From positions 14,087 to 78,086 of the forward strand of contig JAKLFY010000005.1 in NCBI GenBank assembly GCA_022710935.1: 64,000 nucleotides of DNA, in the 5' to 3' direction. This document shows, piece by piece, positions 16,880 to 51,597 of this stretch; position 1 is the first letter of the stretch, and each line of letters starts with the position of its first letter. This DNA is from Verrucomicrobiota bacterium. Lineage in GTDB: Bacteria > Verrucomicrobiota > Verrucomicrobiia > Limisphaerales > J093. Under the pieces are notes generated by a model. That model saw only the letters and a list, made by a program, of their open reading frames with translations. It did no database searches and was not told the DNA's origin. The position numbers and the translations under genes were made by a program.

Positions 16880-16880
16880 G

Positions 16881-36800: not shown

Positions 36801-38512
36801 CCGTGAGGGAGAATGTCCTGGTGCGGCCTGATGACGACTTTCCCTATGGCAGCGCGCCCACCGGGCTCGCGCTGAGCGCGGATGGCTCGCGCCTGTTTGT
36901 CGCGCTCGGGGGAAATAATTGCATCGCCGTCGTGGCCCTCTCTGCCACGCCGGGCGAGAGCGCGGTCACGGGTTTTCTGCCCACCGACTGGTATCCTGGC
37001 GCGGTAGCCGCCGTCCAGGACCGCCTCTACGTGGCAAGCGTGAAGGGACTCGGCTCGCGACTCGGGCAACCCACTGCCACCAGCTACCAGATCGGCGCTC
37101 ACCTCGGAACGGCGAATCGGATCACCATCCCCGACCAGGAAACCCTGAGCAAACTGAGCGCGCGCTCTTTCGAGGACGGGCGGGTGCCGGCCATCCGCCG
37201 CGCTCATGAACGAGGCGTCCCGACCCGCCCGCCCGTGCCGGTGCCCGCTCGGCTTGGAGAACCCTCCGTGTTCGAGCACGTGCTCTATATCCTGAAGGAG
37301 AACAAGACCTACGACCAAATGTTCGGGGACATCAAGGAAGGCAACGGCGACCCCAACCTGTGCATCTACCCGGAATTGGTCTCTCCGAATCACCATGCCC
37401 TCGCCCGGCAGTACGTTCTGCTGGATAATTTCTACTGCAACGGCGTGGTTTCGGCCGATGGACATTCCTGGTCCACCGAAGCCAATGTCACGGACCATCT
37501 CGAGAAGGCGTTTGGCGGGTTTGCCCGCAGCTATACCTTCGGCGACGACCCGCTCACCTATTCTTCGAGCGGGTTTATCTGGGACAATGTCCTCCGCCAC
37601 GGCCTCAGCTTCCGCAATTATGGCGAGATGGACTACGCTTCGCCGTCCGGAAACGAGACCTGGCTGCAGATCCACGACGATTTTGTGAGCGGCCGCAGGT
37701 CGGTCCGCTACCTTCAAAACATCGGCATCGAGAACCTTCGGCGCTGCAGCTCGACGAACGTTCCCGGCTGGAACATGGGGATCCCGGATATCGTCCGGGC
37801 CGACGGTTTCCTCCGCGAGTTGCGCGAGGCTGAGGCCCGGGGCGCCTGGGAGAACTTCAGCTTTCTTTACCTGCCCAACGATCACACCGGCGGCCCGCCA
37901 ACCCCCCGCGCCCAGGTGGCGGATAATGACCTCGCCCTTGGGCGGGTGGTCGAAGCCGTCACGCGCAGTCGCTTCGCCACCAATACGGTCATCTTCGTCA
38001 TCGAAGACGATCCCCAGAGCGGCTACGATCACGTGGACGCGCACCGCTCTCTCTGTTTGGTGATCAGTCCTTACACCCGGCGTGAGGCGGTCATCAGCAC
38101 GTTCTACAACCAGGCTGGGGTCGTCCACACCATGGAGCGCATCCTCGGTCTGCCTCCCATGAACCAGCAGGATGCCATGGCCCCGCTGATGTTCGATTGT
38201 TTCACGGACGTGCCGAACTTCGCGCCCTACACCGCCCGCGCCAACAACATTCCGCTCGACGAGGGTGCTCGGAAGGTGGGTTCCCTTACCCCCGCACAAC
38301 TCCACTGGGCGGCGCAGTTGAAGACAATGGACTTCTCGAAACCCGACCGCATCGATGACGACCTCTTCAATCGGTACATCTGGTTTGCGAACAAGGGCGA
38401 TGCTCCCTATCCCGTGGAGTTTGTGGGAGCGCACGGGAAGGGCCTGAAACAGCTCGGCCTGGTCCTCGCGGCCGGAAGGGCGGATGAGGACGATGAGGAG
38501 GAGGATGACTGA
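33884..38512 (+). CDS. large secreted multidomain protein: N-terminal beta-sandwich, Ig-like, YncE-like beta-propeller and phosphoesterase (PLC/AcpA-type) domains
   Basis: Signal or anchor sequence after ATG 33884. Ig repeat with YQWLFNG. Internal ...EAAFYRVRQSE module. Propeller repeats (LYVANANSDTVTIID, VYVTGAGNELYEW). Phosphoesterase motifs FEHVLYILKENKTYDQMFGD and SADGHSWSTEA. Acidic tail. Confidence 0.8.
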   Translation: MLRIMLWNMCWVPLAVRRSHCSFCRLLLIAVTVAGFAGVVSSREALAQGLSLPKPIVLEDFENVAEGAIPVGWRREHHSTVSQSTTSLQDLNSVSYANWLVVNASRFRTAFQTYSSHTPVDYSRVLTSNPENVVNGRLVTELARGRMLFSDSGYRDGVQVMYLDTSDYDLTGRTNVHVAMNSLYEQNQDNIAALEYSIDRGANWLPVVYYLDSKDILTTAGQIDAVRTFNTRYSDVATYRDPATGATVGGYYGAFIKAPVSQALAPFIAGRTDDDPVSSKRVELFRLAAADNQAAVRFRFAHAGTDSWYWGIDNFGLYSITPGQMPVIVAAPADLEVTAGLEATFRVVAAGVEPLAYQWLFNGTNIAGATNAILTLTPADNPRQGDYTVVISNLFGVIESGPARLTLSHPRVTGQWDFDQGDLRATVGADLEFVADTASVVSFAPAEFQGGVAGVMEYGPFSPRQGLYMRHGANPNGGGRFVNRYTLLMDVRCDFESSGSLRAVLQTDPFNHDGNEADFLIGAANGLGGPNGLGADSQFHGSAAPDQWHRIAFAADLAAEPGRQLSKYIDGVLVGQQSLPGGIDGRYALGPTALLFTGGLAAEAAASGAVNSIQFVDTWLTPAAIAELGNPTAQGLPPGEHALTLTLAAFEGEALRLQWTGPAGWYEVQKATKLTPPDWEVCSNPTSNHTIVLQGTGEAAFYRVRQSEANMTVGQLPGGAQSLPSMQLVRPAGDSLQFSGRPVDLALSPDRRTVYVKNINNLLVIDANAWRVRQTLPYPAGGASMHGIAVSPDGRRVYVTGAGNELYEWGVDAEGVVTFSRTIGLPAGSYPCGIALFGSGDRAAVCLSIPNRLAIVNLTTGTLLSSVRVGIAPWDVVLSSDESTAFVSDWGGRWPDANDLKAPSAGTPVVVDERGIGASGVVSFVNLAVSRETGQVPTGLHPSDLELSPDGRALYVANANSDTVTIIDTTTRSVRENVLVRPDDDFPYGSAPTGLALSADGSRLFVALGGNNCIAVVALSATPGESAVTGFLPTDWYPGAVAAVQDRLYVASVKGLGSRLGQPTATSYQIGAHLGTANRITIPDQETLSKLSARSFEDGRVPAIRRAHERGVPTRPPVPVPARLGEPSVFEHVLYILKENKTYDQMFGDIKEGNGDPNLCIYPELVSPNHHALARQYVLLDNFYCNGVVSADGHSWSTEANVTDHLEKAFGGFARSYTFGDDPLTYSSSGFIWDNVLRHGLSFRNYGEMDYASPSGNETWLQIHDDFVSGRRSVRYLQNIGIENLRRCSSTNVPGWNMGIPDIVRADGFLRELREAEARGAWENFSFLYLPNDHTGGPPTPRAQVADNDLALGRVVEAVTRSRFATNTVIFVIEDDPQSGYDHVDAHRSLCLVISPYTRREAVISTFYNQAGVVHTMERILGLPPMNQQDAMAPLMFDCFTDVPNFAPYTARANNIPLDEGARKVGSLTPAQLHWAAQLKTMDFSKPDRIDDDLFNRYIWFANKGDAPYPVEFVGAHGKGLKQLGLVLAAGRADEDDEEEDD

Positions 38513-38860
38513 GTTACTGCCCCGTCGAGAAGGTTGAAGCTTACGCCAGCGGCAATGCCAATTCGCCTGGCTTCAACCGGCTCGCCCAAGGTGACAAAGG
38601 CGCCGTTCGGCACAACCGAAAGTCGAATTACGCCATGGCGGATGGAAGCGGTTCGCTCCTGGACCCCGGGCGCATCGCCACGCGCATCTCGCCGGAGCCA
38701 CGCCAGCCTCTTTTCCTGCGTTGCCTCGCATCCACTGGCAAAGGCCGATGAGGAAACGGGCCCCGATCCTCGATTCGCAACGTGTGCGCGGTGCGGGCCA
38801 ACCGCGATGCCAGCCCAGCGACTGGACCATACAGATTCCTGTTTTTCGGGACCGACCCCT

Positions 38861-39376
38861 TTATGAAGCTGAATTCGTCGAAGCGCGACACGACGACTTC
38901 GCCAGGCTGTGAGTGGTTTCGTTTCGGGGCTGTCGTGGGTGCGCTTCTATTAGCCGAAGCCTGCTTTGCTCCGCGAGCGCGCGCATAATTCTTGATACAC
39001 ACCAGTCAGGGCGCTTTGCGAGGTCGTGCTGCCAAATTCGTAGAACGCGCCAGCCTTTCTTGCGCAGAGCGCGGTTTACGTGGAGGTCACGAGTCCTGTT
39101 TGCGGACAGCTTCCGCCTCCAAAAGGCGCGATTGCTCACCGGAGTGCTGCAATGTATCGGGCAGCCGTGCCAAAAGCAGCCGTCCACGAAAACGGCCAGG
39201 CGTGACGCTCGAAAGACAAAATCCGGACTTCCGAACACGGTCTGGTTCCGCCTCCATCCCACGATCCCCCGACTCCGCATCAAGGTGCGCAGTCTCTGTT
39301 CTGTGGCACGGTTTCCCTTCGATCGAATTCGGGACATTATTTCGGATCGAAACCTAGCTGAAAAAACATCTGCCAT
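38861..39376 (-). CDS. vsr: very short patch repair endonuclease
   Basis: RSKGNRATEQRLR...PDFVF...AVFVDGCFWHGC...WRVLRIWQHDL. The last 35 aa or so may be read-through. Confidence 0.9.
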   Translation of the reverse strand: MADVFSARFRSEIMSRIRSKGNRATEQRLRTLMRSRGIVGWRRNQTVFGSPDFVFRASRLAVFVDGCFWHGCPIHCSTPVSNRAFWRRKLSANRTRDLHVNRALRKKGWRVLRIWQHDLAKRPDWCVSRIMRALAEQSRLRLIEAHPRQPRNETTHSLAKSSCRASTNSAS

Positions 39377-39417
39377 GAATGCGGTCCGACAAGCCTAGAC
39401 TCCAGTTGGGCGGGACT

Positions 39418-40488
39418 TCAGCGCCGTCGATGAACACCATTCGCGCCTTTCCTGCGGACAGCGTGTGCGGCGAGGGCACGCCTCACTTCCACCGCCTGCC
39501 GACGCACAAGTTCGGGAGGCAGTGCGTTGCCGATCATCAAGGCTACCCCCTGCTTTCCGGCAGTGAGGTCAAATTTGTATCTTCGCGGAAACGTCTGAAT
39601 CAGCGCCGCTTCGCGCATGGTGATATTCCGGTTCTCCACCGGATGGAGGAATCGGCCCTTTGACGGGTTGAAACATCCACCGGTGATTGTCGGGGCAACA
39701 TCATCCCAGGCCATGCGACCATAGATGTCCTTGAAACCGTCGCAGCGTCGATGACACTCAAGTTGCATGCTCGCGGGCAGATCGCGGCGGCTGCCTCCGT
39801 CCTTGGGGATTCGTGCAATCTTGCGGCGAACTTCCATGCTGCGCTGTTCAGGCAGATCGTGCAAAGGGTCGCCACTTTTTCCGGCTGGCGGCAGGTTTCC
39901 TATGGCTTGTCGGACGGTGCGATGTGTTCGAGCCGGTCGCGGGAAAGAAACCTCCAAGGTGAGTCCGGCAATCAGCACAAGTCGCCGCCGGCGTTGAGGG
40001 ACGCCGAAATCCTGCACATCCACAATCTCCCACTGCACTCTGTAACCCATTGACTCCAACGCGGTGGTGAATTCTCGGAACACCTTCTTCTCCCCGAGTC
40101 GCGGGACATTCTCCATCATGACTGCCTTTGGCCGCATCTCCTGCACCAGCCTCAGCATTTCTTTGACGAGGTTGTTCCGCGGGTCGCGATTTCGAGTCGC
40201 GCCATTGCGTGTCCGCAATGTCGAAAACCCCTGGCAGGGCGGACAGCCGACCAGCAGATCGAGTTCTCCCCGTTTGATCGTCAGTTCGCGCATCCACTTT
40301 CGCCCCTTGATGTCCCGGATGTCGTTCTGCGACAACTTCGTCCCGGGGTGGTTCAGTGCGTAGGTTTTTCCCGCCAAGGGATCAATTTCCACGGCACCAA
40401 TCACCTTGAACCCCGCGCGACACAGCCCTTCGGTTACCCCGCCGCAACCCGCAAACAAATCAATCGCTGTTGGTCGTCTTCGCTCCAT
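39418..40488 (-). CDS. dcm: DNA (cytosine-5)-methyltransferase
   Basis: Motif I DLFAGCGG, motif IV GCPPCQGFS, motif VI MENVPRL, motif VIII QRRRRLVLIA and motif X GNALPPEL. ATG 40488 lies 4 nt after the upstream stop. Confidence 0.95.
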   Translation of the reverse strand: MERRRPTAIDLFAGCGGVTEGLCRAGFKVIGAVEIDPLAGKTYALNHPGTKLSQNDIRDIKGRKWMRELTIKRGELDLLVGCPPCQGFSTLRTRNGATRNRDPRNNLVKEMLRLVQEMRPKAVMMENVPRLGEKKVFREFTTALESMGYRVQWEIVDVQDFGVPQRRRRLVLIAGLTLEVSFPRPARTHRTVRQAIGNLPPAGKSGDPLHDLPEQRSMEVRRKIARIPKDGGSRRDLPASMQLECHRRCDGFKDIYGRMAWDDVAPTITGGCFNPSKGRFLHPVENRNITMREAALIQTFPRRYKFDLTAGKQGVALMIGNALPPELVRRQAVEVRRALAAHAVRRKGANGVHRRR

Positions 40489-40492
40489 GCCG

Positions 40493-42556
40493 TCAAACCT
40501 CCCCGTCTCTGTATATGTCCACCGAAGTCTCAAGACATGGGCGCAGATCGAAATCATTCATGCCCAGTCCGGAGCGGGGCCGATCGATCCGCTGGTAAAT
40601 GTCGAAGCCCCGGCCAATCTTCACGATCCATCCGTTGTCCAAATGAATCTTCCGATCGTGAAGGCGTGAATCGAAAGTAAACTCAAACGCGATTGAATGC
40701 TGTTTGAGATCATCCACCAGGGCATCCAGCTTCTCGGACACCTCCACCTCCTGTGATTGGTCGTCGGCTCCGGTTACCAACCGAATCCTCTCGGCATCAC
40801 CCGTTTTCACCACCAGCTCGCAGAATCGTGTAAAATTGGCAATTTGGTGCGGCAGGCGGATATACGGATCCTCTATTCGGATCACTTTCGCCCCGGCGAG
40901 ATACGGTCCGAGCATCTTTTCGTAGCTGTAACCGGTATCCCCGTAGTGAATCGTAAAGTGCTTCTCCTTCAGTGAGGGGCGAGTCGCTTCTGCGGCGTCT
41001 GACGCGGCCACAGCCTGCGGCTCCACTGCCCTCGGCGCACTCGCACTTGGCGCGGTCTGCTTGTCCGCAGAGGGCAGCGGTTCCTGAGCTGCCACGCCGC
41101 CAATCCCCTTCGATTCCTGACAATGCACCGCCTGCTCCTGACCGTCTGCCTTGAAGAACGAGAATTGGAGTGCGGCAAACTCATCGTCCGGTTTTCGCTT
41201 GTTCAACTGCTCTTTCACGCGTCGACGTCCTTCCAAGGCATACTCCAGATACTCATTGAATTCCTGGTCGGAAGGTTCGCCGTGTGGGTGCAACAACTTC
41301 AAGAACCCCGCCACCGTCTTGATGACGGCAGTCTCATCGCGGCCGCGCACGGCGGCGCCCAGCCGTGCCTTCCCCTTCACGAATGCGTAGCGGTTTGTCT
41401 GCTTTGCCAGGTGGTGCAGGGCTTCCGCCAGATAATCCGTGATGAACCCGTAACTCGCAGTCAACAAATCGCTGCTATTCGGCGGAATCTCCCAGCCCGG
41501 CAGGTAGGTGTGAAACCGATGCAACACCGCCAGGTCAAAGGCTTCCGGCAGCGGTTTGAAAAGATCATGGTCCGGCGAGCGCACGAGGGCCTCAATCGAG
41601 TCATCAATGTTTCCAATGAAGGCGAGGCTGGCGTTGGCGATGATTTCCGCCGGGCCGCGGCTGAATCGTCCGTTTGCCATGTAATCCTTCATGATCTGAA
41701 TCGTGTCCCGATCCTTTACCCGGATGCCGGCGACCTCGTCGAAAGCCACCACATCCCAAAACCCGATGATCCCCACGCGGCGACGCTGGTTATTGTAGAA
41801 CAGGACGGAGGTGCTCGCCTGTCCGCCGCTGACCAGGGTCACATACGGCGAGAATTCACTGAATACGTAGGACTTGCCGGTGCCGCGCGGCCCCAATTCA
41901 ATGAAGTTGTAGTTCGCCTCGACAAAGGGGATCAGCCGGGTCAGGAAGTGCAGTTTGAGCCGTTTGGTCAGCTTGGTTGGCTCCAGCCCGACTGAACGCA
42001 GCAGCACATCCATCCAGGCGTCCCGACTGAACTGCTGCGCACCCTCGCAATAACGGGTGAAGTCGAATCTTGAGAGCTGCACGGGCCGGAGATCCTCAAC
42101 GTAGAAAGCGTAATCGTCATCCTCCACATCGTTGTAACCCAGCGTCACCTCCGCCCAAATGCCACCCTCCAGCAGGCGGTCGTTTTCCCGGTAGAACTTC
42201 TCGTTGATCGCAATGCGGCGCGAGTTGAAGTTCTCCATCGCCGCCCAGTGTCGTTTCTCCCGCTCCACATAGGAAACATGGATCTTGTCGATGAATTTGT
42301 GGCTGCCCTTCTGTTGCACCAGTGATTGTGCCCGGTTTGACTCGTCCGGGCGCACGTAGTTCTGCTGGATCGTCTCCAGCACGGCTGCGATGCCCGCCTG
42401 AATCTCGTGCGGATCATCTGTTGCACAGAATTTCGCGAGCAGGAATTCCAGCACAAAGGAGGGCACGTTTGTGCCCTTCTTGATCTGGTGCAGCAGATCT
42501 TTGCGCACGACGCACCCGGAAAATGTCCGGTTCAACTGTTGGTCGAGGTCATCCAT
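40493..42556 (-). CDS. BrxL-like AAA+ ATPase with a C-terminal MIT_C (MITD1-type phospholipase-D-like) domain in place of the Lon protease domain
   Basis: The N-terminal 460 aa or so are BrxL/TIGR02688-like (FSGCVVRKDLLHQIKKGTNVPSFVLEFLLAKF, Walker A GPRGTGKSY, Walker B VVAFDEV). An Ala/Pro-rich linker follows. The C-terminus carries EDPYIRLPHQIANFTRFCEL, LHDRKIHLDNGWIVKIGRGFDIY and DFDLRPCLETSVDIY. These match my memory of the human MITD1 C-terminal domain (DPYIR..[46 protein letters not shown]). Confidence 0.8.
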   Translation of the reverse strand: MDDLDQQLNRTFSGCVVRKDLLHQIKKGTNVPSFVLEFLLAKFCATDDPHEIQAGIAAVLETIQQNYVRPDESNRAQSLVQQKGSHKFIDKIHVSYVEREKRHWAAMENFNSRRIAINEKFYRENDRLLEGGIWAEVTLGYNDVEDDDYAFYVEDLRPVQLSRFDFTRYCEGAQQFSRDAWMDVLLRSVGLEPTKLTKRLKLHFLTRLIPFVEANYNFIELGPRGTGKSYVFSEFSPYVTLVSGGQASTSVLFYNNQRRRVGIIGFWDVVAFDEVAGIRVKDRDTIQIMKDYMANGRFSRGPAEIIANASLAFIGNIDDSIEALVRSPDHDLFKPLPEAFDLAVLHRFHTYLPGWEIPPNSSDLLTASYGFITDYLAEALHHLAKQTNRYAFVKGKARLGAAVRGRDETAVIKTVAGFLKLLHPHGEPSDQEFNEYLEYALEGRRRVKEQLNKRKPDDEFAALQFSFFKADGQEQAVHCQESKGIGGVAAQEPLPSADKQTAPSASAPRAVEPQAVAASDAAEATRPSLKEKHFTIHYGDTGYSYEKMLGPYLAGAKVIRIEDPYIRLPHQIANFTRFCELVVKTGDAERIRLVTGADDQSQEVEVSEKLDALVDDLKQHSIAFEFTFDSRLHDRKIHLDNGWIVKIGRGFDIYQRIDRPRSGLGMNDFDLRPCLETSVDIYRDGEV

Positions 42557-42557
42557 A

Positions 42558-45098
42558 TCAAGTCAGGATTTCCACTTTCAGTTTCAAAGGTAATCCGTAG
42601 GTCAATCCCGTCTCCGCATCCACGGCCCGGACTTCCATCGGTCCGACGAAATCTTCGACGATCCGCATCGGCACTTTCACAGCCTGCCCCGCCTTCAGCT
42701 TCACCACGCCGGTTGCAGGATCGACATGTGCACAGGACGCCGCTTCCCCGATGACGGTTTCCTGGGATCGGACCTTGGCCCTCGCTTCCAGCCGGAACGA
42801 CACCTCGCTGGCAAACAATTCTCCGCCGAATACGCTCACATCCAGCACCGGCCGTCGGGTCGTCACCGTGCCTTGCGCTTCCCCTCGGTAACGCAATTGC
42901 ACGTCCACCGCAGAGTGCGGCTCCGCTTCTTGATTACCCAGGTCAACTTCGATCAGAGGCGTTACCGCCTCCTGCAGGGAGAGGCCCTCGTGAAAATAGG
43001 GGTGCCGCTTGTTGAATGTCCCCAATGAGCGGGGAACCAGGTAGGACTCCACCTCCCCCTGAATGCCGACCTGTTCCTTGCCAAAGAGTATCGTCCCGGG
43101 AGTCGCCGATCCCCGCCCGAGCATGCACCGGTCTTTGACTTGGATCCAGTCCCCTTGGGGCTTCGCCACGGTGTCGCCCGCCGCCAGGCCGGGATGCAGG
43201 ACAAATCCGTGGTCGGTGGTGAAGATCACGTGGTGAAATCCCAGCTTCTTGAGTTTGCCGACAGCGGCGATCAGTTTCGCCAGAACATGAGGGAGGAACA
43301 GACAAACGTTGCTCGCATCCATCTCCCCCTGCTCGTCAATGTCGGTGGTCATGACCAGCAGCAGATCAACACCGCTCAGAGGCTCCGGCTTTTTCTTCCC
43401 CGCAGGCTTGAGCGCGATCAAATCGTCCAAGTCCAGCAGCTTCGTGCGGTCGCCGTAAAACTCCTGCGTGTAGGCAAAACGCTCAGCCGGCGTGCGAATC
43501 GGCTTGCCGTGCAGTGTCGGCACCAGCTTGTCCTCCGATATTTTCAGAACCAGATTTCCATCCGCTTTGGGTAACAGCGAAGCCATTCCGACGGCGGTAA
43601 TGGTCGGCAACTGTGCGCAGACCGACTTCAGCCGGCAGGTATAGCTGCCGCCCAGTTGCCGCTCCAGCGCCGTCCCCAATTCAAAGCGCAGGGCATCTAC
43701 AAAGAACAACGCGACTCTTTTGCCGCGCGTATCCAGGAGCGGGGCGATGCATTTGTCAAAGACCTGCGTGGCGCGCAGTCGTCCGCTGGTTGGCCACCCC
43801 TCCTTGGCCACACAATCAATGAATCGGCGCTGCAACTCCTCGGCGACCGCGAGAAACCGATGTCGTGCCGACTCGATCAATTCCTCGACGCCGTCGCTTT
43901 CTCCGTAGGTGTCGGCCACAGCTTTTTCCAGCTCGCGATGAGCTTGATCCAACCGGTAGGCCCGCCCTGTGTAGAAGGAAATCAGATCGTCCGCTGATTT
44001 TCCCGCCGCCGGCAAATCCCGTTCCAAATCTCCGGCGATCACGAGGAGTTCTCGGGCGCGTTCGGCGACCGTCCACAACATGCCGCGATCCGTATGCTTC
44101 ACCCATACGGACTCCTTCCGCTGGTCGGCAATCTCCGCTGCGGCTCCCCAATTGCCCGTCAAAAGTGCTTTTACGTATTGCCGAAGGAAACTGCGCTCCT
44201 CGAATGCGAAAGTGTCCCGCTTCCCCAGATCCGGCACTTCACGGGTCCTCGCTTCCAGCGTCAGCTCGGCAGCCACATTTCCGGCGCGGGCGATGTAGCT
44301 CGCATGATGCTTCTCCTGCCGCAGCGTATCACACACGCGGTTGACCAGCGCCTCGGCGCTCAGCTTTGCCCGGGGAATACCGGCCAAACTCTCCGGAAGT
44401 CCACCGGGCAGGTCGAGGGCGAATTCACTGAACAACACGAATCGCCAGAATTCCTCCGCCAGCGCATCCCACTTCTTCGTCTTGGTTTTGGGCGTGAAAC
44501 CAAGTTGCGAGCCGAACAGTTCTTTCGCTTCGGTTGCCCAGCCGTCGGTGGATTTCAGCTTCAGGAGCTGTTCAGCGTTGGGAACGAGAAGCGCAGTTAT
44601 GATTTCGGCCGCGGACTCGACGCCCAGCAGTGTTTGCAGTTGCGGCCAATGGTTTCCACCTTCGACCGCATCAATCATCGCCAGGTCCGGCGTGCCACTG
44701 CTGAACAACTCGCGAACCTTGTCCCGGTGGTCGGGTTTGGCCTTCTCACACAGACTTTGAAATGAATCGTCGTCGCTGCGCGGAAACCAGTCTGAGCCGG
44801 CGGCAATACCGCTGAACGGATCGTGACATCGTTCCTCGGGCGTCTTCGGCCTGTCCATCGGCACATACACGACCAATCGGCGCTCTGCTGCCTCGGCTTT
44901 CCCGAGCCCAGCCCAACATTCGACCGCGCGTTCGTGCGCTTCGATGAACGACTCCGAGGCATCCAGCACCATGCATTGCTCGTTCATCATGGTCAGCACC
45001 AGGTTGCGGTAGCGCCTGGCAGCATCATACACCACCAGCGCGCCCGCTTTGTCGGCCCGCTCGCGTAGTGTCGTTTGAATGAATTGCCCGATCTTCAT
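42558..45098 (-). CDS. pglZ: BREX-type alkaline-phosphatase-fold protein PglZ
   Basis: 846 aa. PglZ core RVALFFVDALRFELG, LPTITAVGMASLLP and VIFTTDHGFVL. N-terminal region typical of BREX type-1-like PglZ. Confidence 0.9.
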   Translation of the reverse strand: MKIGQFIQTTLRERADKAGALVVYDAARRYRNLVLTMMNEQCMVLDASESFIEAHERAVECWAGLGKAEAAERRLVVYVPMDRPKTPEERCHDPFSGIAAGSDWFPRSDDDSFQSLCEKAKPDHRDKVRELFSSGTPDLAMIDAVEGGNHWPQLQTLLGVESAAEIITALLVPNAEQLLKLKSTDGWATEAKELFGSQLGFTPKTKTKKWDALAEEFWRFVLFSEFALDLPGGLPESLAGIPRAKLSAEALVNRVCDTLRQEKHHASYIARAGNVAAELTLEARTREVPDLGKRDTFAFEERSFLRQYVKALLTGNWGAAAEIADQRKESVWVKHTDRGMLWTVAERARELLVIAGDLERDLPAAGKSADDLISFYTGRAYRLDQAHRELEKAVADTYGESDGVEELIESARHRFLAVAEELQRRFIDCVAKEGWPTSGRLRATQVFDKCIAPLLDTRGKRVALFFVDALRFELGTALERQLGGSYTCRLKSVCAQLPTITAVGMASLLPKADGNLVLKISEDKLVPTLHGKPIRTPAERFAYTQEFYGDRTKLLDLDDLIALKPAGKKKPEPLSGVDLLLVMTTDIDEQGEMDASNVCLFLPHVLAKLIAAVGKLKKLGFHHVIFTTDHGFVLHPGLAAGDTVAKPQGDWIQVKDRCMLGRGSATPGTILFGKEQVGIQGEVESYLVPRSLGTFNKRHPYFHEGLSLQEAVTPLIEVDLGNQEAEPHSAVDVQLRYRGEAQGTVTTRRPVLDVSVFGGELFASEVSFRLEARAKVRSQETVIGEAASCAHVDPATGVVKLKAGQAVKVPMRIVEDFVGPMEVRAVDAETGLTYGLPLKLKVEILT

Positions 45099-45104
45099 GG
45101 CGTC

Positions 45105-46961
45105 CTACCAACTGTCTGATCCGCCGCGCTTCTCATCGCGCGCCTGTTTTATACCGCAAAAACCCAGGAAGTCGCAATGCGAACACCGCGCCCCACCGCC
45201 CTGCCTTGCCTTCGGTCCTTCGCTGAATTTGCGGTTGCGAATGTCCGCGGCAGTGGTCGCCACCAGCTTCGTGGCCGCCGTCAGCGCGGCCGCATTCAGT
45301 GGCACGCTCAATTCCGCCTTCATCGCATCATCGGCGTCCAAGTAGCGGACCAGTCCCTGTTCGGGCTGATACTCCAATTCCTTTTTGGCCGCCACTGCAT
45401 ACAGCGCCACCTGTAACCGCATCTCTTCCTCGTCCAGCTTTTGGTGCTTGTCCGACTCCGGATCGCCGGACTTGAAGTCCACCAGCGTCACCTGCGGCGG
45501 ATTGTCCCGCCGGATGACGTCAATAGCTCCCGACACCAGCACGCCACCCTCGCCGTCTTCATACTCCACCAGCGTCTCAAAGCTCTTCTCCGGTTCAAAT
45601 GTCAACTCGCCCAGCTCGCCCGCATAACGCTCGATGTAATTCGCCACCACCTCCAACCCCTTTGCCCGCATGTTGTCCGCCGGATTGCCTGTCGTGTAGC
45701 GCAGGTAAAACAATCCGTGGTCAATCAACCCCTGGATTTCCCGCTCCAACGCCGGGCGATTCGTTGCCAGCGCCGCCCACTTCTTGGGATCCGAATGCAC
45801 GGCACGCATCAGGTTATGCACCCCGCGGCCGTAACCGAATGCCTGGTCGATGGTGGGCGCAAACCCGAGCACTTTTCTGAGATAGAAATCGTGCGGGCAT
45901 TCCAGATAGTAACGGAGGTCCGAGAAGGACGTGGCCAGCCGCACGTCCCGCAGATGCTCCTTGGGGGCATACTTCAGTTCGTTCAGCAGTTGTTGTGAGT
46001 CGTCGGTCACCGTTCCGCCGCTTTCGCTGACCATCGGGCGGAGTTCCTTGATGAAACTCGATGTCCGTTTTCCGCAGTGGCTGATGAACAGAAACCGCTC
46101 GGCGCGGGTCAGCGCCACATACATGAGCCGCCGCTCGCCGTCCCGGGTTTCATTGTCGGCCAGCCCTTCCACATCAATCTCCTCGACGATGCGTCCCTCC
46201 AGCGGCAGGTCCGGCTTCCGCCGGGCCATGCTGTTCGGAAAGCTGTTGGCGTTCACGGCGGCGAGGAACACCCCGGCGAACTCCAATCCCTTTGCACCGT
46301 GGATCGTGCTGATCGTGACTGCGTCCGGTTGGACCATCAGCGGCTGCTCCTCCGCCCGCGCCTCCTCGGAGCCGTATTGGCAAAGCCCGATGATCTGCCA
46401 GCGGTAGTCCCGGGTGCTTGTCCATCCGGGGGTTTCAATGCCCGTGATCAATCCGCTGAGCGCCCCAAGGTGGAACAATGCCGTCTGGCCGCGGCCCTCG
46501 CACGTGTCCCAGGCTTCCACCTCGGCCTCAGACAACAGCATGTGGAAGATCTTCTGGGGAAAGACGCGCCTCAGATCACCCGATTTGGTGAGAAACTCGC
46601 GCAACGAAGGGGTTCGGAAGGCCGCCGCTTTCTTTGGGTTGAGGGCCGTCCCGTGGTCAATCCGATCGGCAATCGCCCCCGCCGCCAGCAGCAGCCGGTC
46701 TTCGACCTCGCGGCTGAACGCCAGACCCGAGGCCCGTAACATCCGGGCCGATGCCCGCAGCACCTCCGTCGGATGAGGGGCACACCCCAACACTCCATCA
46801 ATCCGCTGGGGCAGACTTTTCGGGTTGTATTCCGACCCGAAGAATTCATCCATCCTTGCCGTCAGTGCCAGTGCCCCGACAAACAACAGAACCTCCGGCT
46901 GCGAGAACAAGTCCGGGCCGGCGCGCACCACGCAGGGGATGGCGCCTGTATCCTGATGCAC
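45105..46961 (-). CDS. UvrD-family helicase C-terminal half fused to a Cas4/AddB-like PD-(D/E)XK nuclease (no Walker A half)
   Basis: UvrD 2B-like IPCVVRAGPDLFSQPEVLLFVGALAL, motif V TISTIHGAKGLEFAGVFL and motif VI LMYVALTRAERFLFIS. Nuclease part: SFSDLRYYLECPHDFYLR, GAIDVI, LVDFKSG, QVALYAVA and Cys cluster CSHCDFLGFC. GTG start at 46961, first ATG at 46853. No ATP-binding motifs I to III are present. Confidence 0.75.
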   Translation of the reverse strand: MHQDTGAIPCVVRAGPDLFSQPEVLLFVGALALTARMDEFFGSEYNPKSLPQRIDGVLGCAPHPTEVLRASARMLRASGLAFSREVEDRLLLAAGAIADRIDHGTALNPKKAAAFRTPSLREFLTKSGDLRRVFPQKIFHMLLSEAEVEAWDTCEGRGQTALFHLGALSGLITGIETPGWTSTRDYRWQIIGLCQYGSEEARAEEQPLMVQPDAVTISTIHGAKGLEFAGVFLAAVNANSFPNSMARRKPDLPLEGRIVEEIDVEGLADNETRDGERRLMYVALTRAERFLFISHCGKRTSSFIKELRPMVSESGGTVTDDSQQLLNELKYAPKEHLRDVRLATSFSDLRYYLECPHDFYLRKVLGFAPTIDQAFGYGRGVHNLMRAVHSDPKKWAALATNRPALEREIQGLIDHGLFYLRYTTGNPADNMRAKGLEVVANYIERYAGELGELTFEPEKSFETLVEYEDGEGGVLVSGAIDVIRRDNPPQVTLVDFKSGDPESDKHQKLDEEEMRLQVALYAVAAKKELEYQPEQGLVRYLDADDAMKAELSVPLNAAALTAATKLVATTAADIRNRKFSEGPKARQGGGARCSHCDFLGFCGIKQARDEKRGGSDSW

Positions 46962-47514: not shown

Positions 47515-47522
47515 GGCAAATT

Positions 47523-47792
47523 CTAAATGTTGGTGCGCGGCGCTACGACACCTGGTTCATCCTGAACGGAGATTTTATAGAAGTGGCTGGGGCCGACGCC
47601 GGAGGTGAAGCGTTCAACGCTGAATCGATCGGGTTTCACATACCACGCTTGAGCGATCTTCCAGCGCGCTGCCACAATCGCTGATGCCAGGCCGCAGACC
47701 TTTGAGCCCGTTAGACCGATCTCCACGTTGTATCCGCTTTGGTGGTAGAGCTGAGAATACAGTTTCGTCAGGAAATCTATGTTCTCCTTCAA
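47523..47792 (-). CDS. hypothetical protein (89 aa)
   Basis: The TTG start overlaps the brxC stop (ATTTGAAGG). Noticeably AT-richer than its surroundings. No family recognised. It could be a frameshifted continuation of brxC. Confidence 0.35.
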   Translation of the reverse strand: MKENIDFLTKLYSQLYHQSGYNVEIGLTGSKVCGLASAIVAARWKIAQAWYVKPDRFSVERFTSGVGPSHFYKISVQDEPGVVAPRTNI

Positions 47793-49750
47793 ATCAGTCG
47801 ACGAGAGCGGGTAGCAATGCGCTCGTCCCGACGTTTGTCATAGACGGCGGCGTCCACCAACTCGATCACGTATTGGACCGGTTCGCGTTCGCCCAGCAGC
47901 GAAACCATCTGCGCCCCCACCGTTGTCTTCATGCCGGCGGTCACGCTCCGGGTGCCTTCCAGGCGCACTTCCGGCTGGTGCGTGAAGATCTGGGTGAGTT
48001 TCTCGTTTAGAACTTTCCGCAGGTCGCGGTCGAACACGTTGATCTTGCCCTTGGCGGCTTCCATCTCCGCCACGGCTTCGCTCATGAAGCGGAGCTTGCC
48101 GTCCACTTCGTTCAGGTGGACCGCCTTCTCCTCCATCAGACGCGTGACCGCAGCTTTCACCGATTCCATTTGGGAAGGAGCATCCACCCGGGGATGCAGC
48201 AGTGCGCCCACGTTCTCGCGGCTGATCGGGAAGTCGTCGAGCACCTGCAGCACGGCGATCACCTTGGCCACCTTCACTTCAAAGGAATCTCCGCTGAACG
48301 CCTTCTCAGCGCGGGCGACGCCATCAACGACATGTTTGAAGGAGCGTTGGATGTCGAGGCGCAGCGTGTCGTAGAACGTAATCGTGGTGGCCAACTCGCC
48401 GGCAGATGCGTCCGCCAGCAGTGCCTGACCGGAGCGCAAGCCGCTCTGATCCACCAGCACATCCTGGATGACCTTGATGGCGGACCGCAGGCCGATGCCG
48501 CCGCTCGTCTTCGCCAGGCGGCCAAGCAATTCCAGCAGGATGTCGAAGTGCTGCGGCAGGAACGGATAGAGCCGGCGGAATTCGTCTTTTTCCAAGGCCG
48601 ATTTGTAGTAGCGAGTGCCGGTTAGTTGCGTGTGATGTTTCAGCGCCGGGCCGTGCGTGTCGAAAAGGACAGCCAGGGTCTTGTCGCCCTCCGCCGACTT
48701 GGTCAGCAGCCGGTTGTAGCAGATCTCCCGGATGTCACTCGCCTCCAGGTCCACGCGAATGGGAAAGCGATCCGACAGCTTGAACAGTTTGGCGGAATTG
48801 AACCGGGCATTTGGATCGTCCTCGGTCAGGGTCTGTTGTGCCGTGGCGACCAGCCAGACCTTGCCGCCGCCGAGGTGTTTGACGTTCTTGGCCAGTCCGT
48901 CGAGGTTCAGGATAAGGTTGTCCCGTGCGGCGATGTATTGGCCGACCTCGTCGAGAATGAAGATGATGTTCGGTTTACCTGAGCGTCGGCGGACCAGTTC
49001 CAACATCTCCGCCACACGCTCGTTTTCCTTCTCGGCTTCGTCCACGCGCAACTTCTGGAATGCCGTCGCGTCGGGAAACACCTCGGGATAGAACTCGTGG
49101 GCCAACCGGGACGCGAATTGGTTGACGACCAGCGGCTGATTCTGAATCTGTTTCCACGTCTTGCCCTTGGACAACTCGACAATGCGTTTCTCGAATGCCT
49201 CCATTTTGCCATCCTTCTCCAGCATGAACTGGAGATAGGCGACCTTCTTGTCCTTCGAGTAGCCCGCCCACTGCATGACTGTCCAGTAGAGCACGGTGGA
49301 GATTTCCACCATCGTTGCGCCGGCGATCTGGGCGCTGGCCAGGTCCACCATGATGACCGTCGCCGGATAGCGTTTGGCCAAGGCACCGAGCTGTGCTTTG
49401 AGTGCCGCGGACTTTAGCTGTGCCTGCAGCCATTCGAGAAATGGCCGTTCGTCCACGGCACGAGAGGGATCAAGCGCAAATCCCAGATACTTCGTGAAGG
49501 AACTCTTGCCCGATCCGTAAAAGCCGGACACCCAGACACCGATTTCGTGTGCGCCGCCGCCAAGGCCGTCGTTCAGGTGCGACAAGAGGCGGTCGAAACT
49601 CCTGGCGATGTTGTCGGTGACGACATATTCGGTGACTTCCCGCTTGAGCTGGTCATTCTCGGTGCTGTCGAACGAAATGACCTTTTCGATTCGCCGGTCC
49701 AGACTGCGGCTGATTTCAAACAGGTCGCGTATTTTGCTCATGGGTGTCAT
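47789..49750 (-). CDS. brxC: BREX P-loop protein BrxC/PglY, N-terminal ATPase half only (653 aa)
   Basis: N-terminus KIRDLFEISRSLDRRIEKVISF....EYVVTDNIARSF and Walker A GVWVSGFYGSGKSSFTKYLG are typical of BrxC (DUF499). Walker B IIFILDEVGQY. From memory, canonical BrxC is about 1200 aa. Confidence 0.8.
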   Translation of the reverse strand: MTPMSKIRDLFEISRSLDRRIEKVISFDSTENDQLKREVTEYVVTDNIARSFDRLLSHLNDGLGGGAHEIGVWVSGFYGSGKSSFTKYLGFALDPSRAVDERPFLEWLQAQLKSAALKAQLGALAKRYPATVIMVDLASAQIAGATMVEISTVLYWTVMQWAGYSKDKKVAYLQFMLEKDGKMEAFEKRIVELSKGKTWKQIQNQPLVVNQFASRLAHEFYPEVFPDATAFQKLRVDEAEKENERVAEMLELVRRRSGKPNIIFILDEVGQYIAARDNLILNLDGLAKNVKHLGGGKVWLVATAQQTLTEDDPNARFNSAKLFKLSDRFPIRVDLEASDIREICYNRLLTKSAEGDKTLAVLFDTHGPALKHHTQLTGTRYYKSALEKDEFRRLYPFLPQHFDILLELLGRLAKTSGGIGLRSAIKVIQDVLVDQSGLRSGQALLADASAGELATTITFYDTLRLDIQRSFKHVVDGVARAEKAFSGDSFEVKVAKVIAVLQVLDDFPISRENVGALLHPRVDAPSQMESVKAAVTRLMEEKAVHLNEVDGKLRFMSEAVAEMEAAKGKINVFDRDLRKVLNEKLTQIFTHQPEVRLEGTRSVTAGMKTTVGAQMVSLLGEREPVQYVIELVDAAVYDKRRDERIATRSRRLI

Positions 49751-50331
49751 CCTCCAATGTGGACCGACCGGTAGTTCCCGTCGGGCGGATAGAAGCCGAG
49801 AAATCTCAGCGTGGTTTTTCCGTCACGGACTCCGGGATACAGAATCACGGTCGGGACGGTAAACTTGCCTTGGAGCTTTTGCTCCAGGACGCCGACGCGC
49901 AGATAAGGATGCAGGGCTTCCAGATCGGTGATGAAGAGCACGGTTTGCGCGCGGCCCCGGAGCGACTCCAGCCTGGTCTCGATCTTCCGCTTCAGAAGCT
50001 CATCGGCCGTCAGGGCGTCCTCCAGCGTCTTGTTGATCTCGGTCACGGACTCCCGGTCACACACAGTGTTCGCCGGGCTCGACAACCACACGTCGCGCAG
50101 TTCGTTGCTGCGGAAAATCTCCAGAACGGTGGCGGCCATCGACATCGTTTCCATGGTCCATCCCTGCTTGGCGAGCCGGGCCGCCCACTGTTTCTGCAGC
50201 CGTTTGATTTCGAGCATCTGCTCGGGCTTGAACACCAGGTAGTAAACGGGATCGTCGCCCGTGTTGGTCAGGCCGCGGCCCGCACGCAACCGCTGCCACA
50301 ATTCTTCAAAACTTTCACTGGGCGACGACAT
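49747..50331 (-). CDS. brxB: BREX protein BrxB (DUF1788-like)
   Basis: 194 aa from ATG 50331. DDPVYYLVFKPEQMLEIKR...ILYPGVRDGKTTLRFLGFYPPDGNYR is the typical DUF1788 pattern. The stop overlaps the brxC start (ATGA). Confidence 0.75.
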   Translation of the reverse strand: MSSPSESFEELWQRLRAGRGLTNTGDDPVYYLVFKPEQMLEIKRLQKQWAARLAKQGWTMETMSMAATVLEIFRSNELRDVWLSSPANTVCDRESVTEINKTLEDALTADELLKRKIETRLESLRGRAQTVLFITDLEALHPYLRVGVLEQKLQGKFTVPTVILYPGVRDGKTTLRFLGFYPPDGNYRSVHIGG

Positions 50332-51103
50332 CGAGAGATTCCTCCATTGTTTTGCACGCCCACGAAATCCGCACGATATCCCCGACCTGAACGATGAAAC
50401 GTCCCTGTCCGGAGAGTCGGCGCAGCTCATTTAGGACGTCGGACGACGAGAGCCCAAACAGCTCCCAATCCATGTGGGTCAAAATCATGGCGTCGTTCAC
50501 GCCGGAGAAATGCAGTTCGTGTGCGAGGTAGGTGATCGTGCTGGCCGAAGGGGTAAACGGGAGGATGGGACGACGATCGCCCTGCGGGTCGCCCAGCATT
50601 TTGAAATCGCACAACGCGGTCAGCAGATAGCGGCCGATTCGGATGTTGTTGCCTTCCGTCCACCGCGTCTTGATCCGTCCGTTGGCTTGTGCGGACTTGA
50701 TGAAGTTCACCGAATCTTCACGGAATAGGAACTGAGCCCCGGCAGAGTAGCGGGGCCAGTAAACCTCGCGGATGAAATCGTAGAGGATCAGATGCTCACG
50801 GGCGGTGTAGAGCAGAAACAGTTGATTTAGACGGTCGAGGTTGACGCCGCGCTGAACCAGAGGCCGAAGCCAGCATGCCGGACGGCCGCCTTCGCGCACA
50901 TATCGCGGCGCGAACCCGCGGCTGACAATGTCAGAAACACGCTGGGATGTGGCTTTCGGAATCAATCCTTGGCTGCGGACTTTTTCCGCCAACTGCTGCG
51001 AACTCATTCCCGGCTCCCAAACCTGCAGCAGGCGAAGCGTCTCCGGAAGCATTCCCTGGCCTTTGCACAAACCTGTGTTGTATTCACGTTCCAGGCCGCT
51101 CAT
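50315..51103 (-). CDS. brxA: BREX protein BrxA (DUF1819-like)
   Basis: Position directly upstream of brxB. The LFLLYTAREHLILYDFIREVYWPRY pattern is typical of DUF1819. The start overlaps the upstream stop. Confidence 0.7.
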   Translation of the reverse strand: MSGLEREYNTGLCKGQGMLPETLRLLQVWEPGMSSQQLAEKVRSQGLIPKATSQRVSDIVSRGFAPRYVREGGRPACWLRPLVQRGVNLDRLNQLFLLYTAREHLILYDFIREVYWPRYSAGAQFLFREDSVNFIKSAQANGRIKTRWTEGNNIRIGRYLLTALCDFKMLGDPQGDRRPILPFTPSASTITYLAHELHFSGVNDAMILTHMDWELFGLSSSDVLNELRRLSGQGRFIVQVGDIVRISWACKTMEESLDVVAQ

Positions 51104-51594
51104 GCAAAATAAGGGAAGACCCGTGTGCCCGAGCGGAAGCCGGCTGCGTAGGTCGCCGCCAAACGCGCCATGCCGCCCTGCGTGTCCGTTTCCTTTAACG
51201 GGCCGATGTGGATCGGGCCGGTGCCAGGCATCGGTTTTGCTTCTGCCGCCACAGCGTCAAGCAACTGCAAAGCAGCATCCCACGTGCACATCCTCTGGAG
51301 TTCTGGGATTCCCAGCCTGGAAAGACCGACTCGCACTTTCGCCTCACTCTCACGGGGGAGACGGAACAGGTGGGCGACGCGCCCTTTGCCTATTCGCTCG
51401 TCGTGCGCGCGACACGCGGCCTCCGAGGCGGCGTTTACTGCCGCCCAAGCCGCCGTCTTCGGGTAAACCAACTCCAGATACCTGAAGCCAACGGCATTGA
51501 GGAACGCGGTCTCCCACCAACCGGCCGCCGTTTTCTCGCCGAGGTGCGCGACCGCGATTCGGAGGGCGCAGGCCATGGTGTCGTGCCTTTGCAT
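51100..51594 (-). CDS. hypothetical protein, possibly BrxE-like
   Basis: 164 aa, first gene of the operon, ATGA-coupled to brxA. The motifs HLGEKTAAGWWETAF and VAHLFRLPRESE resemble my recollection of BrxE-family proteins. Not verifiable here. Confidence 0.45.
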   Translation of the reverse strand: MQRHDTMACALRIAVAHLGEKTAAGWWETAFLNAVGFRYLELVYPKTAAWAAVNAASEAACRAHDERIGKGRVAHLFRLPRESEAKVRVGLSRLGIPELQRMCTWDAALQLLDAVAAEAKPMPGTGPIHIGPLKETDTQGGMARLAATYAAGFRSGTRVFPYFA

Positions 51595-51597
51595 CGT

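Follow-up and report, generated by a model that had tools for sequence, protein, structure and literature searches.

The operon described here is probably a type 1 BREX operon that was recently inactivated by deletion and that carries an older, solitary dcm-vsr pair at its 3' end. It lies in a stretch of 64,000 nt (the window) from a Verrucomicrobiota bacterium (GTDB lineage Verrucomicrobiia; Limisphaerales; J093), which covers positions 14,087-78,086 of the forward strand of contig JAKLFY010000005.1 in assembly GCA_022710935.1. A sequence-only reading of this DNA had proposed dcm-vsr as a replacement for PglX. This proposal is unsupported, since brxL-dcm coexists with PglX in relatives (L008 and L205), the loss of PglX appears strain-specific and recent, dcm-vsr appears older, and half of BrxC is gone as well.

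Organization of the locus

The BREX genes brxA, brxB, pglZ and brxL form one operon on one strand, with gaps of at most 6 nt except at two deletion scars. The features are:

51100..51594, minus strand: brxE-family gene, first gene of the operon (NCBIfam NF033447 BrxE_fam, 124.5 bits, cutoff 40)
50315..51103, minus strand: brxA (PADLOC BrxA, 276.5 bits; Pfam BrxA)
49747..50331, minus strand: brxB, 194 aa with the ATG at 50331 taken as its start (PADLOC BrxB, 217.8 bits)
47789..49750, minus strand: brxC', N-terminal 653 aa only, of ~1200 (PADLOC BrxC, 873.9 bits)
47815..47816, no strand: deletion scar A, about 12.5 kb lost (alignment to sibling contig L233)
47559..47807, minus strand: remnant of a Ser/Thr-kinase-AAA gene (PADLOC CARF_STK_AAA type), last ~83 codons
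46846..47514, minus strand: Zn-ribbon and DEDDh 3'-5' exonuclease gene (PF00929, 8.6e-29)
46941..46948, no strand: deletion scar B, a loss of 1479 bp compared with L175 (blastn breakpoints and junction alignment)
45105..46961, minus strand: 5'-truncated UvrD-Cas4 helicase-nuclease gene, 618-aa ORF (tblastn, Pfam)
42558..45098, minus strand: pglZ, full length, 846 aa (PADLOC PglZ, 844.2 bits over 1-842)
40493..42556, minus strand: brxL, full length, 687 aa (PADLOC BrxL, 870.9 bits over 1-684)
39418..40488, minus strand: dcm, intact C5-cytosine DNA methyltransferase gene, 356 aa (PF00145, 2.6e-60)
38861..39376, minus strand: vsr, very-short-patch-repair T:G mismatch endonuclease gene, 171 aa (PF03852, 1.1e-20)

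In the long ORF of brxB, residues 34-227 correspond to positions 1-190 of the PADLOC BrxB profile. The BrxC match covers only positions 4-642 of the 1212 in the PADLOC profile, and an exact-protein look-up with the truncated BrxC returned no record. BrxL harbors the Pfam domains BrxL_N, BrxL_ATPase and a C-terminal, PLD-like MIT_C. Downstream of vsr, only unannotatable short ORFs are present, followed by a convergent gene for a 1612-aa beta-propeller protein.

Identity and junctions of dcm and vsr

The brxL stop codon (TGA, 40495-40493) is followed by cggc and then by the dcm ATG at 40488, a gap of 4 nt read directly from the sequence. A GGGGAGG run resembling a Shine-Dalgarno sequence lies within the 3' end of brxL, 9 nt before this ATG. 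The dcm stop is at 39420-39418 and vsr begins on the same strand with the ATG at 39376, after a spacing of 41 nt; both genes are intact, and both junctions are as the sequence-only reading had placed them. An ORF listing puts the dcm start at an upstream ATG (40557, 379 aa). Dcm homologues begin to align at residue 1-8 of the 356-aa form and dcm starts 5-6 nt past the brxL stop in the related contigs L007 and L008 (gap of 6 nt in L008); therefore, 40488 is the supported start.

Dcm matches TIGR00675 with 174 bits (cutoff 100.65) and PF00145 over positions 3-319 of 324. The C5-methyltransferase motifs I, IV, VI, VIII and X are present (DLFAGCGG, GCPPCQGFS, ENV, QRRRR and GNALPP) and were also aligned to DNMT1. 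As the nearest solved structures (DNMT1, M.HaeIII and M.HhaI) align with the catalytic core only, the target motif of Dcm cannot be inferred from them. Vsr covers positions 1-119 of 119 in TIGR00632 (110.3 bits, cutoff 97.85) and thus has a complete domain; the final ~35 aa of the product are not conserved, and nucleotide synteny of the window with L007 stops at 39159, inside vsr. An identical Dcm protein is encoded on seven contigs from independent assemblies, behind brxL every time, and the dcm locus is therefore not an assembly artefact. Both enzymes are predicted to be active. From what is known of these families, Dcm would methylate the C5 of cytosine at its own motif in host DNA, and Vsr would nick 5' of the T in T:G mismatches that arise from 5mC deamination.

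Co-transcription of dcm-vsr with brxL and the other BREX genes, as proposed before, is likely given the tight abutment and the conservation of the brxL-dcm junction in relatives, and the pair would most likely be read through from brxL. A scan for promoter and terminator consensus sequences over 38300-52300 gave fewer matches than shuffled sequences and none at the brxL-dcm junction, which in a Verrucomicrobial genome is weak evidence. In metatranscriptome X25, 6% of the dcm words were recovered; they gave a single 203-nt contig (94% identity) inside dcm, and no contig spans the junction.

Two deletion scars

At scar A, the 3' half of brxC, a 267-aa ORF, pglX, a 307-aa ORF, a thymidine-phosphorylase-like gene and most of the kinase-AAA gene were lost. 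Nucleotides 1-36 of L233, which together with L068 belongs to one sibling MAG, align to window positions 47851-47816 and then diverge into the remaining part of brxC. Past this breakpoint, L233 carries the C-terminal half of brxC, a PglX of 1451 aa, the thymidine-phosphorylase-like gene and the N-terminus of the kinase-AAA gene, of which the window retains only the C-terminal remnant. Homology of brxC to the BrxC of L008 and L175 ends at 47816-47819. The kinase-AAA remnant corresponds to residues 1152-1234 of a 1246-aa protein of L008 (tblastn, 41% identity, E 5.6e-16), which itself matches PADLOC CARF_STK_AAA with 1160 bits.

Scar B, with a CAT microhomology at the joint, removed the 3' end of the DEDDh gene and helicase codons 1 to ~446. 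The DEDDh gene is homologous to intact 231-aa relatives until residue ~196 (79-82% over residues 1-196 to the L175 and L151 homologues) and then continues out of frame into the helicase remnant. This remnant represents residues ~447-1061 of a ~1060-aa UvrD-Cas4 protein, that is the end of UvrD_C and the PD-(D/E)XK domain. The full-length helicase-nucleases of L109 and L087 match it at residues 447-1061 and 439-1056 only (tblastn), and the UvrD ATPase domain PF00580, present in the full-length proteins, is missing from it (Pfam). In the sibling, homology of L068 begins at 46941 (95.3% nucleotide identity over window positions 46941-41830) and its helicase continues upstream to at least residue 311.

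Contigs of four independent runs (2016-2021) read across both joints. On contigs of runs X1, X2 and X4 the junction sequence of the window meets L233 as a loose end at its position 36, and the match of an X3 contig likewise ends there. L233 was recovered from the four runs (X1 at ~20x depth) only as isolated short pieces, nearly all 90-95% identical, so that no pglX copy of the window lineage is assembled elsewhere in these runs. PglX thus appears to have been lost through a single deletion, specific to this strain, which took half of brxC with it. Four metagenomes over about 5 years show no allele other than the deleted one, which persists in several digesters; it is therefore not obviously deleterious.

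A tblastn search with the L008 PglX over the whole 64 kb gave no match at E<1, which confirms the previously noted absence of PglX. No methyltransferase besides Dcm was detected by Pfam and PADLOC among the large ORFs of the window, and the earlier description of Dcm as the sole self-marking activity holds in the sense that the locus retains no other DNA methyltransferase. The previous observation that no cognate restriction endonuclease is visible extends to the entire 64-kb window, in which no REase-like, MORC-like or Z1-like ORF, no type IV enzyme and no intact partner of Dcm was found. In E. coli BREX, deletion of brxX (pglX) or brxC abolishes defence and methylation (PMC6326788), and PglX is described as the DNA-recognition factor that is needed for BREX defence itself (PMC11842806 and PMC11341690). 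With pglX and the 3' half of brxC deleted, the window strain has therefore most likely lost canonical BREX function.

Age of the dcm-vsr pair

In several relatives Dcm and PglX occur together. L008 carries BrxC-PglX-PglZ-BrxL-Dcm on one contig with PglX intact, and L205, L161 and L189 have PglX together with a brxL-proximal Dcm. L007 encodes BrxL-Dcm-Vsr with an identical 41-nt dcm-vsr spacer, and in L087 and L205 3' relics of brxL are still joined to dcm. The window differs from L007 by a brxL dS of 1.4 and a Dcm identity of 77%, compared with a dS of 0.12-0.30 to the sibling. On this divergence dcm-vsr would predate the PglX loss of the window strain, and it appears to be far older.

In the sibling MAG no contig covers dcm-vsr, and the runs that contain the sibling pglX yielded only short low-depth contigs. 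Dataset X28 contains, as separate fragments, part of a vsr gene with ~95% identity and part of a sibling-type helicase gene, the latter ending at 46941. By parsimony from L007, the pair was presumably present in the sibling strain.

No frameshifts or stops were detected in pglZ, brxL, dcm and vsr, which are presumably still intact because the deletions are recent. The dN/dS values against the sibling are low (0.00-0.10; 0.10 for pglZ against L068), although they mix pre- and post-deletion parts of a divergence that mostly predates the deletions. Given the intact ORFs and the low dN/dS, the BREX remnant may be under continued selection.

The Dcm, UvrD-Cas4 and Vsr cassette family

The combination of Dcm, UvrD-Cas4 and Vsr was described by Hudaiberdiev et al. 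2017 (PMC5704561), who predicted a role in defence, proposed only an ancillary role for the UvrD-Cas4 helicase-nuclease, noted a MORC link and summarised the link between Dcm and Vsr. We found no experimental test of this predicted family in the literature. Among the UvrD-Cas4 loci collected here, Dcm lies directly upstream in 32 of 54 and Vsr directly downstream in 54 of 71. Loci of Dcm homologues (n=58) contain a MORC-like protein of the REase_II family in 25 cases, UvrD-Cas4 in 13 and a Z1 helicase in six; the MORC-like partners are HATPase_c_3 proteins (PADLOC REase_II PDLC03419) and the Z1 helicases correspond to PADLOC Helicase_II. BREX-linked cassettes are located either between pglX and pglZ or after brxL.

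The 618-aa ORF upstream of pglZ had been missed by the sequence-only reading. It is a truncated form of the usual partner of this Dcm family. As a cognate classical REase the ORF was rejected, being a truncated UvrD-Cas4 accessory in a window that lacks the more REase-like partners of this family (MORC-like and Z1). The DEDDh and UvrD-Cas4 genes lie between pglX and pglZ in L175, L151, L150 and L205, and this embedded position appears to be the ancestral arrangement. A tandem duplication as the source of the helicase-nuclease upstream of pglZ was rejected for the same reason.

We propose that dcm-vsr represents the smallest form in which a family of mobile, restriction-modification-like cassettes survives. 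This family would consist of Dcm, UvrD-Cas4 and Vsr, frequently accompanied by a restriction partner of the MORC-like GHKL or Z1-helicase type and sometimes by a DEDDh exonuclease. The attachment of the pair to the 3' end of a type 1 BREX operon probably dates to an ancestor of this Limisphaerales lineage, where Dcm-Vsr would have existed alongside PglX for most of the lineage history and not as its stand-in. Later, one deletion of about 12.5 kb would have taken the 3' half of brxC, pglX and embedded accessory genes, and a second of 1.48 kb the part of the embedded UvrD-Cas4 gene that encodes the ATPase half.

Alternative readings

It is tempting to speculate that Dcm-Vsr, UvrD-Cas4 and DEDDh are more than mere neighbours of BREX in this clade and act as an accessory layer integrated with its function, possibly as a second restriction line that relies on 5mC and shares its regulation with BREX. 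The window strain would then have kept the modification and repair half because methylation loss is costly. The 4-6-nt brxL-dcm junction is maintained down to 59% Dcm identity, the brxL relics of L087 and L205 remain attached to dcm, and 12 of 80 UvrD-Cas4 loci, spanning at least two Dcm clades, have BREX genes in their flanks. However, several BREX-linked loci come from related samples and nearly duplicate one another, the majority of cassettes have no BREX alongside, and from the BREX side the link is rare, with Dcm downstream in two of 63 BrxL loci at species level. In addition, the pglX-pglZ gap of the window's clade holds numerous defence genes of unrelated kinds (GmrSD, a MORC-like REase and a KaiC-like ATPase), which fits a defence-island hot spot. 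We therefore regard an integrated layer as unlikely. Its stronger form, in which Dcm-Vsr and UvrD-Cas4/DEDDh (perhaps with the thymidine-phosphorylase-like and kinase-AAA genes) co-evolve with a BREX subclade, are fused to brxL in transcription and are coupled to PglZ-BrxL in function, seems quite unlikely; if it were true, the PglX-less remnant would keep a 5mC-dependent self/non-self function.

It is very improbable that Dcm-Vsr, the DEDDh exonuclease and the PD-(D/E)XK remnant form a working split restriction-modification unit in which the nuclease fragment restricts. The remnant does retain the full PD-(D/E)XK domain (PF12705, 1.7e-25), and its full-length homologues are the commonest partners of the Dcm family. 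However, its entire UvrD N-terminal ATPase domain (PF00580) is gone, no start signal of its own is evident, its longest ORF shares 116 nt with the fused DEDDh tail, and many cassettes carry a MORC-like or Z1 protein in addition, UvrD-Cas4 being regarded as ancillary (PMC5704561).

Finally, that Dcm took over self-marking for a PglZ-BrxL defence after PglX loss, with 5mC at the Dcm motif as the mark of self and unmethylated phage DNA excluded by the remaining BREX proteins, is hardly credible: Dcm is the sole methyltransferase of the locus and abuts brxL translationally, pglZ and brxL are intact with low dN/dS, and the deleted allele persists in several digesters, but Dcm stood behind brxL before PglX was lost (L008, L205 and L007), the divergence points to a very recent loss, the deletion took half of a BrxC that E. 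coli BREX requires (PMC6326788), and the 356-aa Dcm has no domain of PglX, the protein described as recognising the sites and as needed for defence itself (PMC11842806 and PMC11341690).

Implications

A recently broken BREX operon with an older orphan methylase-repair pair can thus look like a tidy "BREX without PglX plus Dcm" operon, and annotation pipelines for defence systems could easily call such loci new subtypes; the window is a cautionary example. That a Dcm, UvrD-Cas4 and Vsr cassette family is repeatedly found within type 1 BREX operons or attached to their end is of mild interest in itself, and the pglX-pglZ gap in the window's clade appears to be a hot spot for embedded defence genes as well as for deletions. 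The intact sibling and the deleted strain, from wastewater and digester communities, form a natural pair that could be used as an experiment in the field on what BREX costs its host and what it brings.

Comparison with known systems

In E. coli K-12, dcm and vsr encode a solitary C5 methyltransferase and the VSP repair endonuclease, without a cognate restriction enzyme, and the two genes overlap. The window pair resembles them in gene order, strand and the presumed logic of methylation and repair of deaminated 5mC, whereas its Dcm is distant from that of E. coli (NF007772, 30.7 bits, cutoff 710), its genes are 41 nt apart and it stands at the end of a defence operon. In restriction systems associated with Dcm-Vsr, MORC-like GHKL ATPases or Z1-domain proteins are the partners; such proteins lie next to homologues of the window Dcm, but both are absent from the window. 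The Caulobacter protein ScmA is described as a solitary C5 methyltransferase that occurs together with a Vsr-type protein and whose role in fitness is unconnected with restriction (PMC12907096); unlike the window Dcm, it is not reported in a BREX context.

Other BREX operons likewise harbor unrelated defence genes, either internally or at their end, for example BrxU/GmrSD on pEFER (PMC8565348), and in L150 and L151 GmrSD-family genes occupy the gap between pglX and pglZ. The accessories of the window are instead a C5 methyltransferase paired with Vsr and a helicase-nuclease accompanied by an exonuclease, and no type IV enzyme is among them.

The cassettes of Hudaiberdiev et al. 2017 (PMC5704561) contain homologous Dcm, Vsr and UvrD-Cas4 (PF00580, UvrD_C and PF12705), and their order of Dcm, UvrD-Cas4 and Vsr is seen in dozens of the loci collected here. 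In the window, by contrast, the helicase-nuclease is 5'-truncated and lies 4.6 kb upstream of dcm with pglZ and brxL in between, and dcm and vsr are directly adjacent (41 nt) and fused to the BREX operon. Compared with type 1 BREX of E. coli HS, Acinetobacter and Salmonella StySA, brxA, brxB, pglZ and brxL follow the canonical order with near-full-profile PADLOC matches. The window differs in the absence of pglX and of the C-terminal half of brxC, both apparently through strain-specific deletion, in a brxE-family gene before brxA, and in the extra genes between the position of pglX and pglZ.

Results

The BREX-like operon extends on the minus strand from 51594 down to 38861, with the following genes in order:

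51100-51594, minus: brxE-family gene (NF033447, 124.5 bits), heading the operon
second, minus: brxA
third, minus: brxB
fourth, minus: brxC, covering profile positions 4-642 of 1212 only
after brxC, minus: Zn-ribbon/DEDDh exonuclease gene
between the DEDDh gene and pglZ, minus: 618-aa ORF, in which a PD-(D/E)XK domain follows the end of a UvrD_C domain
42558-45098, minus: pglZ, full length, 5' of brxL
between pglZ and dcm, minus: brxL, full length, with a PLD-like MIT_C C-terminus
39418-40488, minus: dcm, C5-cytosine methyltransferase of 356 aa (PF00145, 2.6e-60; TIGR00675)
38861-39376, minus: vsr, whole-length match to TIGR00632 above the curated cutoff

Except at two places, the genes overlap or are separated by at most 6 nt. 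The brxL stop TGA (40495-40493) is followed by cggc and the dcm ATG at 40488, a GGGGAGG run lies 9 nt 5' of this ATG, and a 41-nt spacer separates the dcm end (39418) from the vsr start (39376); the 4-nt and 41-nt distances of the sequence-only reading are thus correct. Its two absences also hold: no PglX homologue was found anywhere in the 64-kb window, and no restriction enzyme in the rest of it, where housekeeping and surface proteins are encoded. Dcm carries motifs I, IV (PCQ), VI (ENV), VIII (QRRRR) and X, and seven contigs from independent assemblies encode the identical protein, each behind brxL. Promoter and terminator consensus signals were not found at the brxL-dcm junction. The 4-nt gap, an SD-like run internal to the brxL end, the absent consensus signals and the conserved junction lead us to infer that brxL and dcm are probably co-transcribed.

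The type-1-like operon is headed by a BrxE-family gene (51100-51594); BrxE is usually listed under type 6 BREX components. Instead of a Lon-protease-like C-terminus, BrxL has a PLD-like MIT_C domain at residues 542-683 (40505-40933; PF16565, 1.1e-46). Of the BrxL relatives fetched, about half end in this way and the remainder match residues 1 to ~500 only; the ending was already remarked on (PMC12065111). Neither the 137-aa Vsr of the relative L007 nor other homologues share the last ~35 residues of Vsr (38861-38968), and synteny to L007 at the nucleotide level stops at 39159; the edge of the island is apparently within the 3' end of vsr.

Two deletion joints were located by nucleotide comparison with the closest relatives. 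At the first (~46941-46948, CAT microhomology), 1479 bp are missing relative to the BREX relative L175, from the 3' end of the DEDDh gene to helicase-nuclease codon ~446. The 618-aa ORF corresponds to residues 447-1061 of ~1060-aa homologues, which combine the N-terminal ATPase domain of UvrD (PF00580) with UvrD_C and PD-(D/E)XK; the N-terminal half was not found anywhere in the window, and the ORF is a gene fragment. At the second joint, brxC homology ends at 47816, and in the adjoining 300 bp nothing is left but the ~83 terminal codons of a Ser/Thr-kinase-AAA gene (47559-47807).

In the sibling genome, the MAG Limisphaerales AS-MICRO-OLR.142, contig L068 matches window 46941-41830 at 95.3% identity and upstream runs into the helicase N-terminal part. 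Its contig L233 matches 47851-47816 and then continues into the C-terminal half of brxC, a 267-aa ORF, a 1451-aa PglX, a 307-aa ORF, a thymidine-phosphorylase-like gene and the kinase-AAA N-terminus. This gene content at the breakpoint indicates that ~12.5 kb (estimated by adding the absent kinase sequence to L233) were lost from the window strain in one deletion. Contigs from four independent metagenome runs (X1-X4, 2016-2021) span both joints; in X1, X2 and X4 the window junction sequence branches off as a loose end at L233 position 36, and one X3 contig's match also stops there. Beyond the shared stretch, L233 was represented in the four runs (X1 at ~20x) by no more than scattered short fragments, of which nearly all were 90-95% identical, and therefore pglX was not relocated elsewhere in those populations. 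Divergence from the sibling is uneven, with a dS of 0.30 in the helicase-nuclease fragment (45108-46952) vs 0.12-0.14 in pglZ and brxL (compared with L068), which hints at recombination within the locus.

Discussion

The sequence-only reading proposed Dcm as a replacement for the missing PglX, and relatives contradict this. L008 (BrxL 78% identical) has the order BrxC-PglX-PglZ-BrxL-Dcm, with a brxL-dcm gap of 6 nt and an intact PglX (1378 aa, PADLOC 1428 bits), so that Dcm abuts brxL where PglX is present. L007 (BrxL 89%) encodes PglZ-BrxL-Dcm (77%)-Vsr (67%) with the same 41-nt spacer. The dS between the window and L007 is 1.4 for brxL, whereas pglZ, brxL and the helicase fragment differ from the sibling by 0.12-0.30; the loss of PglX therefore came long after the Dcm-Vsr tail. 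In four further loci (L161, L189, L198, L200), PglX-PglZ-BrxL is followed by Dcm, UvrD-Cas4 and Vsr. L205 has PglX, UvrD-Cas4, PglZ, BrxL, MORC-like REase, brxL 3' relic, Dcm and Vsr, and in L087 a brxL 3' relic, Dcm and UvrD-Cas4 adjoin a beta-galactosidase gene. Both relics lie directly upstream of dcm (L087 7770-7991, residues ~613-686, otherwise without BREX; L205 12312-12410, residues 646-678, with the MORC-like REase inserted), which suggests that the brxL-3'/dcm junction may travel as a unit.

Hudaiberdiev et al. (2017) described the full-length family of the 618-aa ORF as a UvrD-Cas4 fusion and already noted its association with Dcm and Vsr (PMC5704561). Among 80 metagenomic loci that encode a close homologue, Dcm is the immediate upstream neighbour in 32/54 and Vsr the immediate downstream neighbour in 54/71 informative cases. 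At 58 genomic loci with homologues of the window Dcm, we observed a ~660-aa HATPase_c_3 (MORC-like) protein, classed by PADLOC as a type II restriction enzyme (25 loci), UvrD-Cas4 (13), a Z1-domain helicase (6) and, at most loci, Vsr. These neighbours place the window Dcm in a family of mobile restriction-modification-like cassettes. In a neighbour-joining protein tree without bootstrap, brxL-linked Dcms occupy two or more clades and are mixed with ordinary cassette members. The cassette is linked to BREX at 12 of its 80 loci; counted from BrxL, the link is found at only 2 of 63 loci. Real functional coupling behind the linkage is unlikely.

In E. coli type 1 BREX, deletion of brxX (pglX), brxB, brxC or brxZ abolishes defence and methylation, whereas deletion of brxL abolishes defence only (PMC6326788). 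Defence needs PglX binding at BREX sites and PglX sets specificity (PMC11842806, PMC11341690). Since PglX and half of BrxC are missing, the window locus is expected to be inactive as BREX. The 356-aa Dcm is no substitute for the recognition role of PglX; most likely, the pair now acts as a solitary methyltransferase and a deamination-repair endonuclease, read through from brxL. dN/dS values are low (0.00-0.10) and further lesions are lacking, which is a sign of recent deletions only and no proof of new function.

Mildly new are the recurrent physical fusion of the Dcm/UvrD-Cas4/Vsr family to BREX and, in this BREX clade, the role of the gap between pglX and pglZ, a hot spot in which GmrSD, MORC-like REase, KaiC-like ATPase or DEDDh plus UvrD-Cas4 are embedded. 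In the closest BREX relatives (L150 315-3822; L151 6291-7952 and 11890-17020; L175 3554-7956) the GmrSD-family enzymes are of type IV, and the variable interval also contains a second C5 methyltransferase and an AAA_21/DUF3696 fragment. PglX of L175 is a 430-aa N-terminal fragment only, an independent case of BREX decay. After brxL, L175 encodes not dcm-vsr but a 1644-aa Sacsin-domain protein (16509-21443; PADLOC TmtA (Tiamat), 311 bits), and thus the post-brxL position is variable too. The thymidine-phosphorylase-like protein (~410 aa; NCBIfam PRK05820, 1.9e-33, under cutoff) and its Ser/Thr-kinase, ORC/CDC6-like AAA partner (~1240 aa; PADLOC CARF_STK_AAA, 1160 bits) recur beside the cassettes in unrelated genomes (window 47559-47807; L008 13080-18039; L233 7911-9423; L094, L113, L166, L167, L179, L195). 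The pair lies inside the sibling's BREX operon, the window retaining the kinase's end only, and may be an uncharacterised defence module.

Overall, the finding is ordinary. The locus is not a functional type 1 BREX (pglX absent, brxC truncated), nor a classical RM system, being without an REase, nor a full Dcm, UvrD-Cas4, Vsr cassette, as the helicase-nuclease is truncated and displaced. The two genes have the tested features of the Dcm and Vsr families, and the pair would work like E. coli dcm-vsr.
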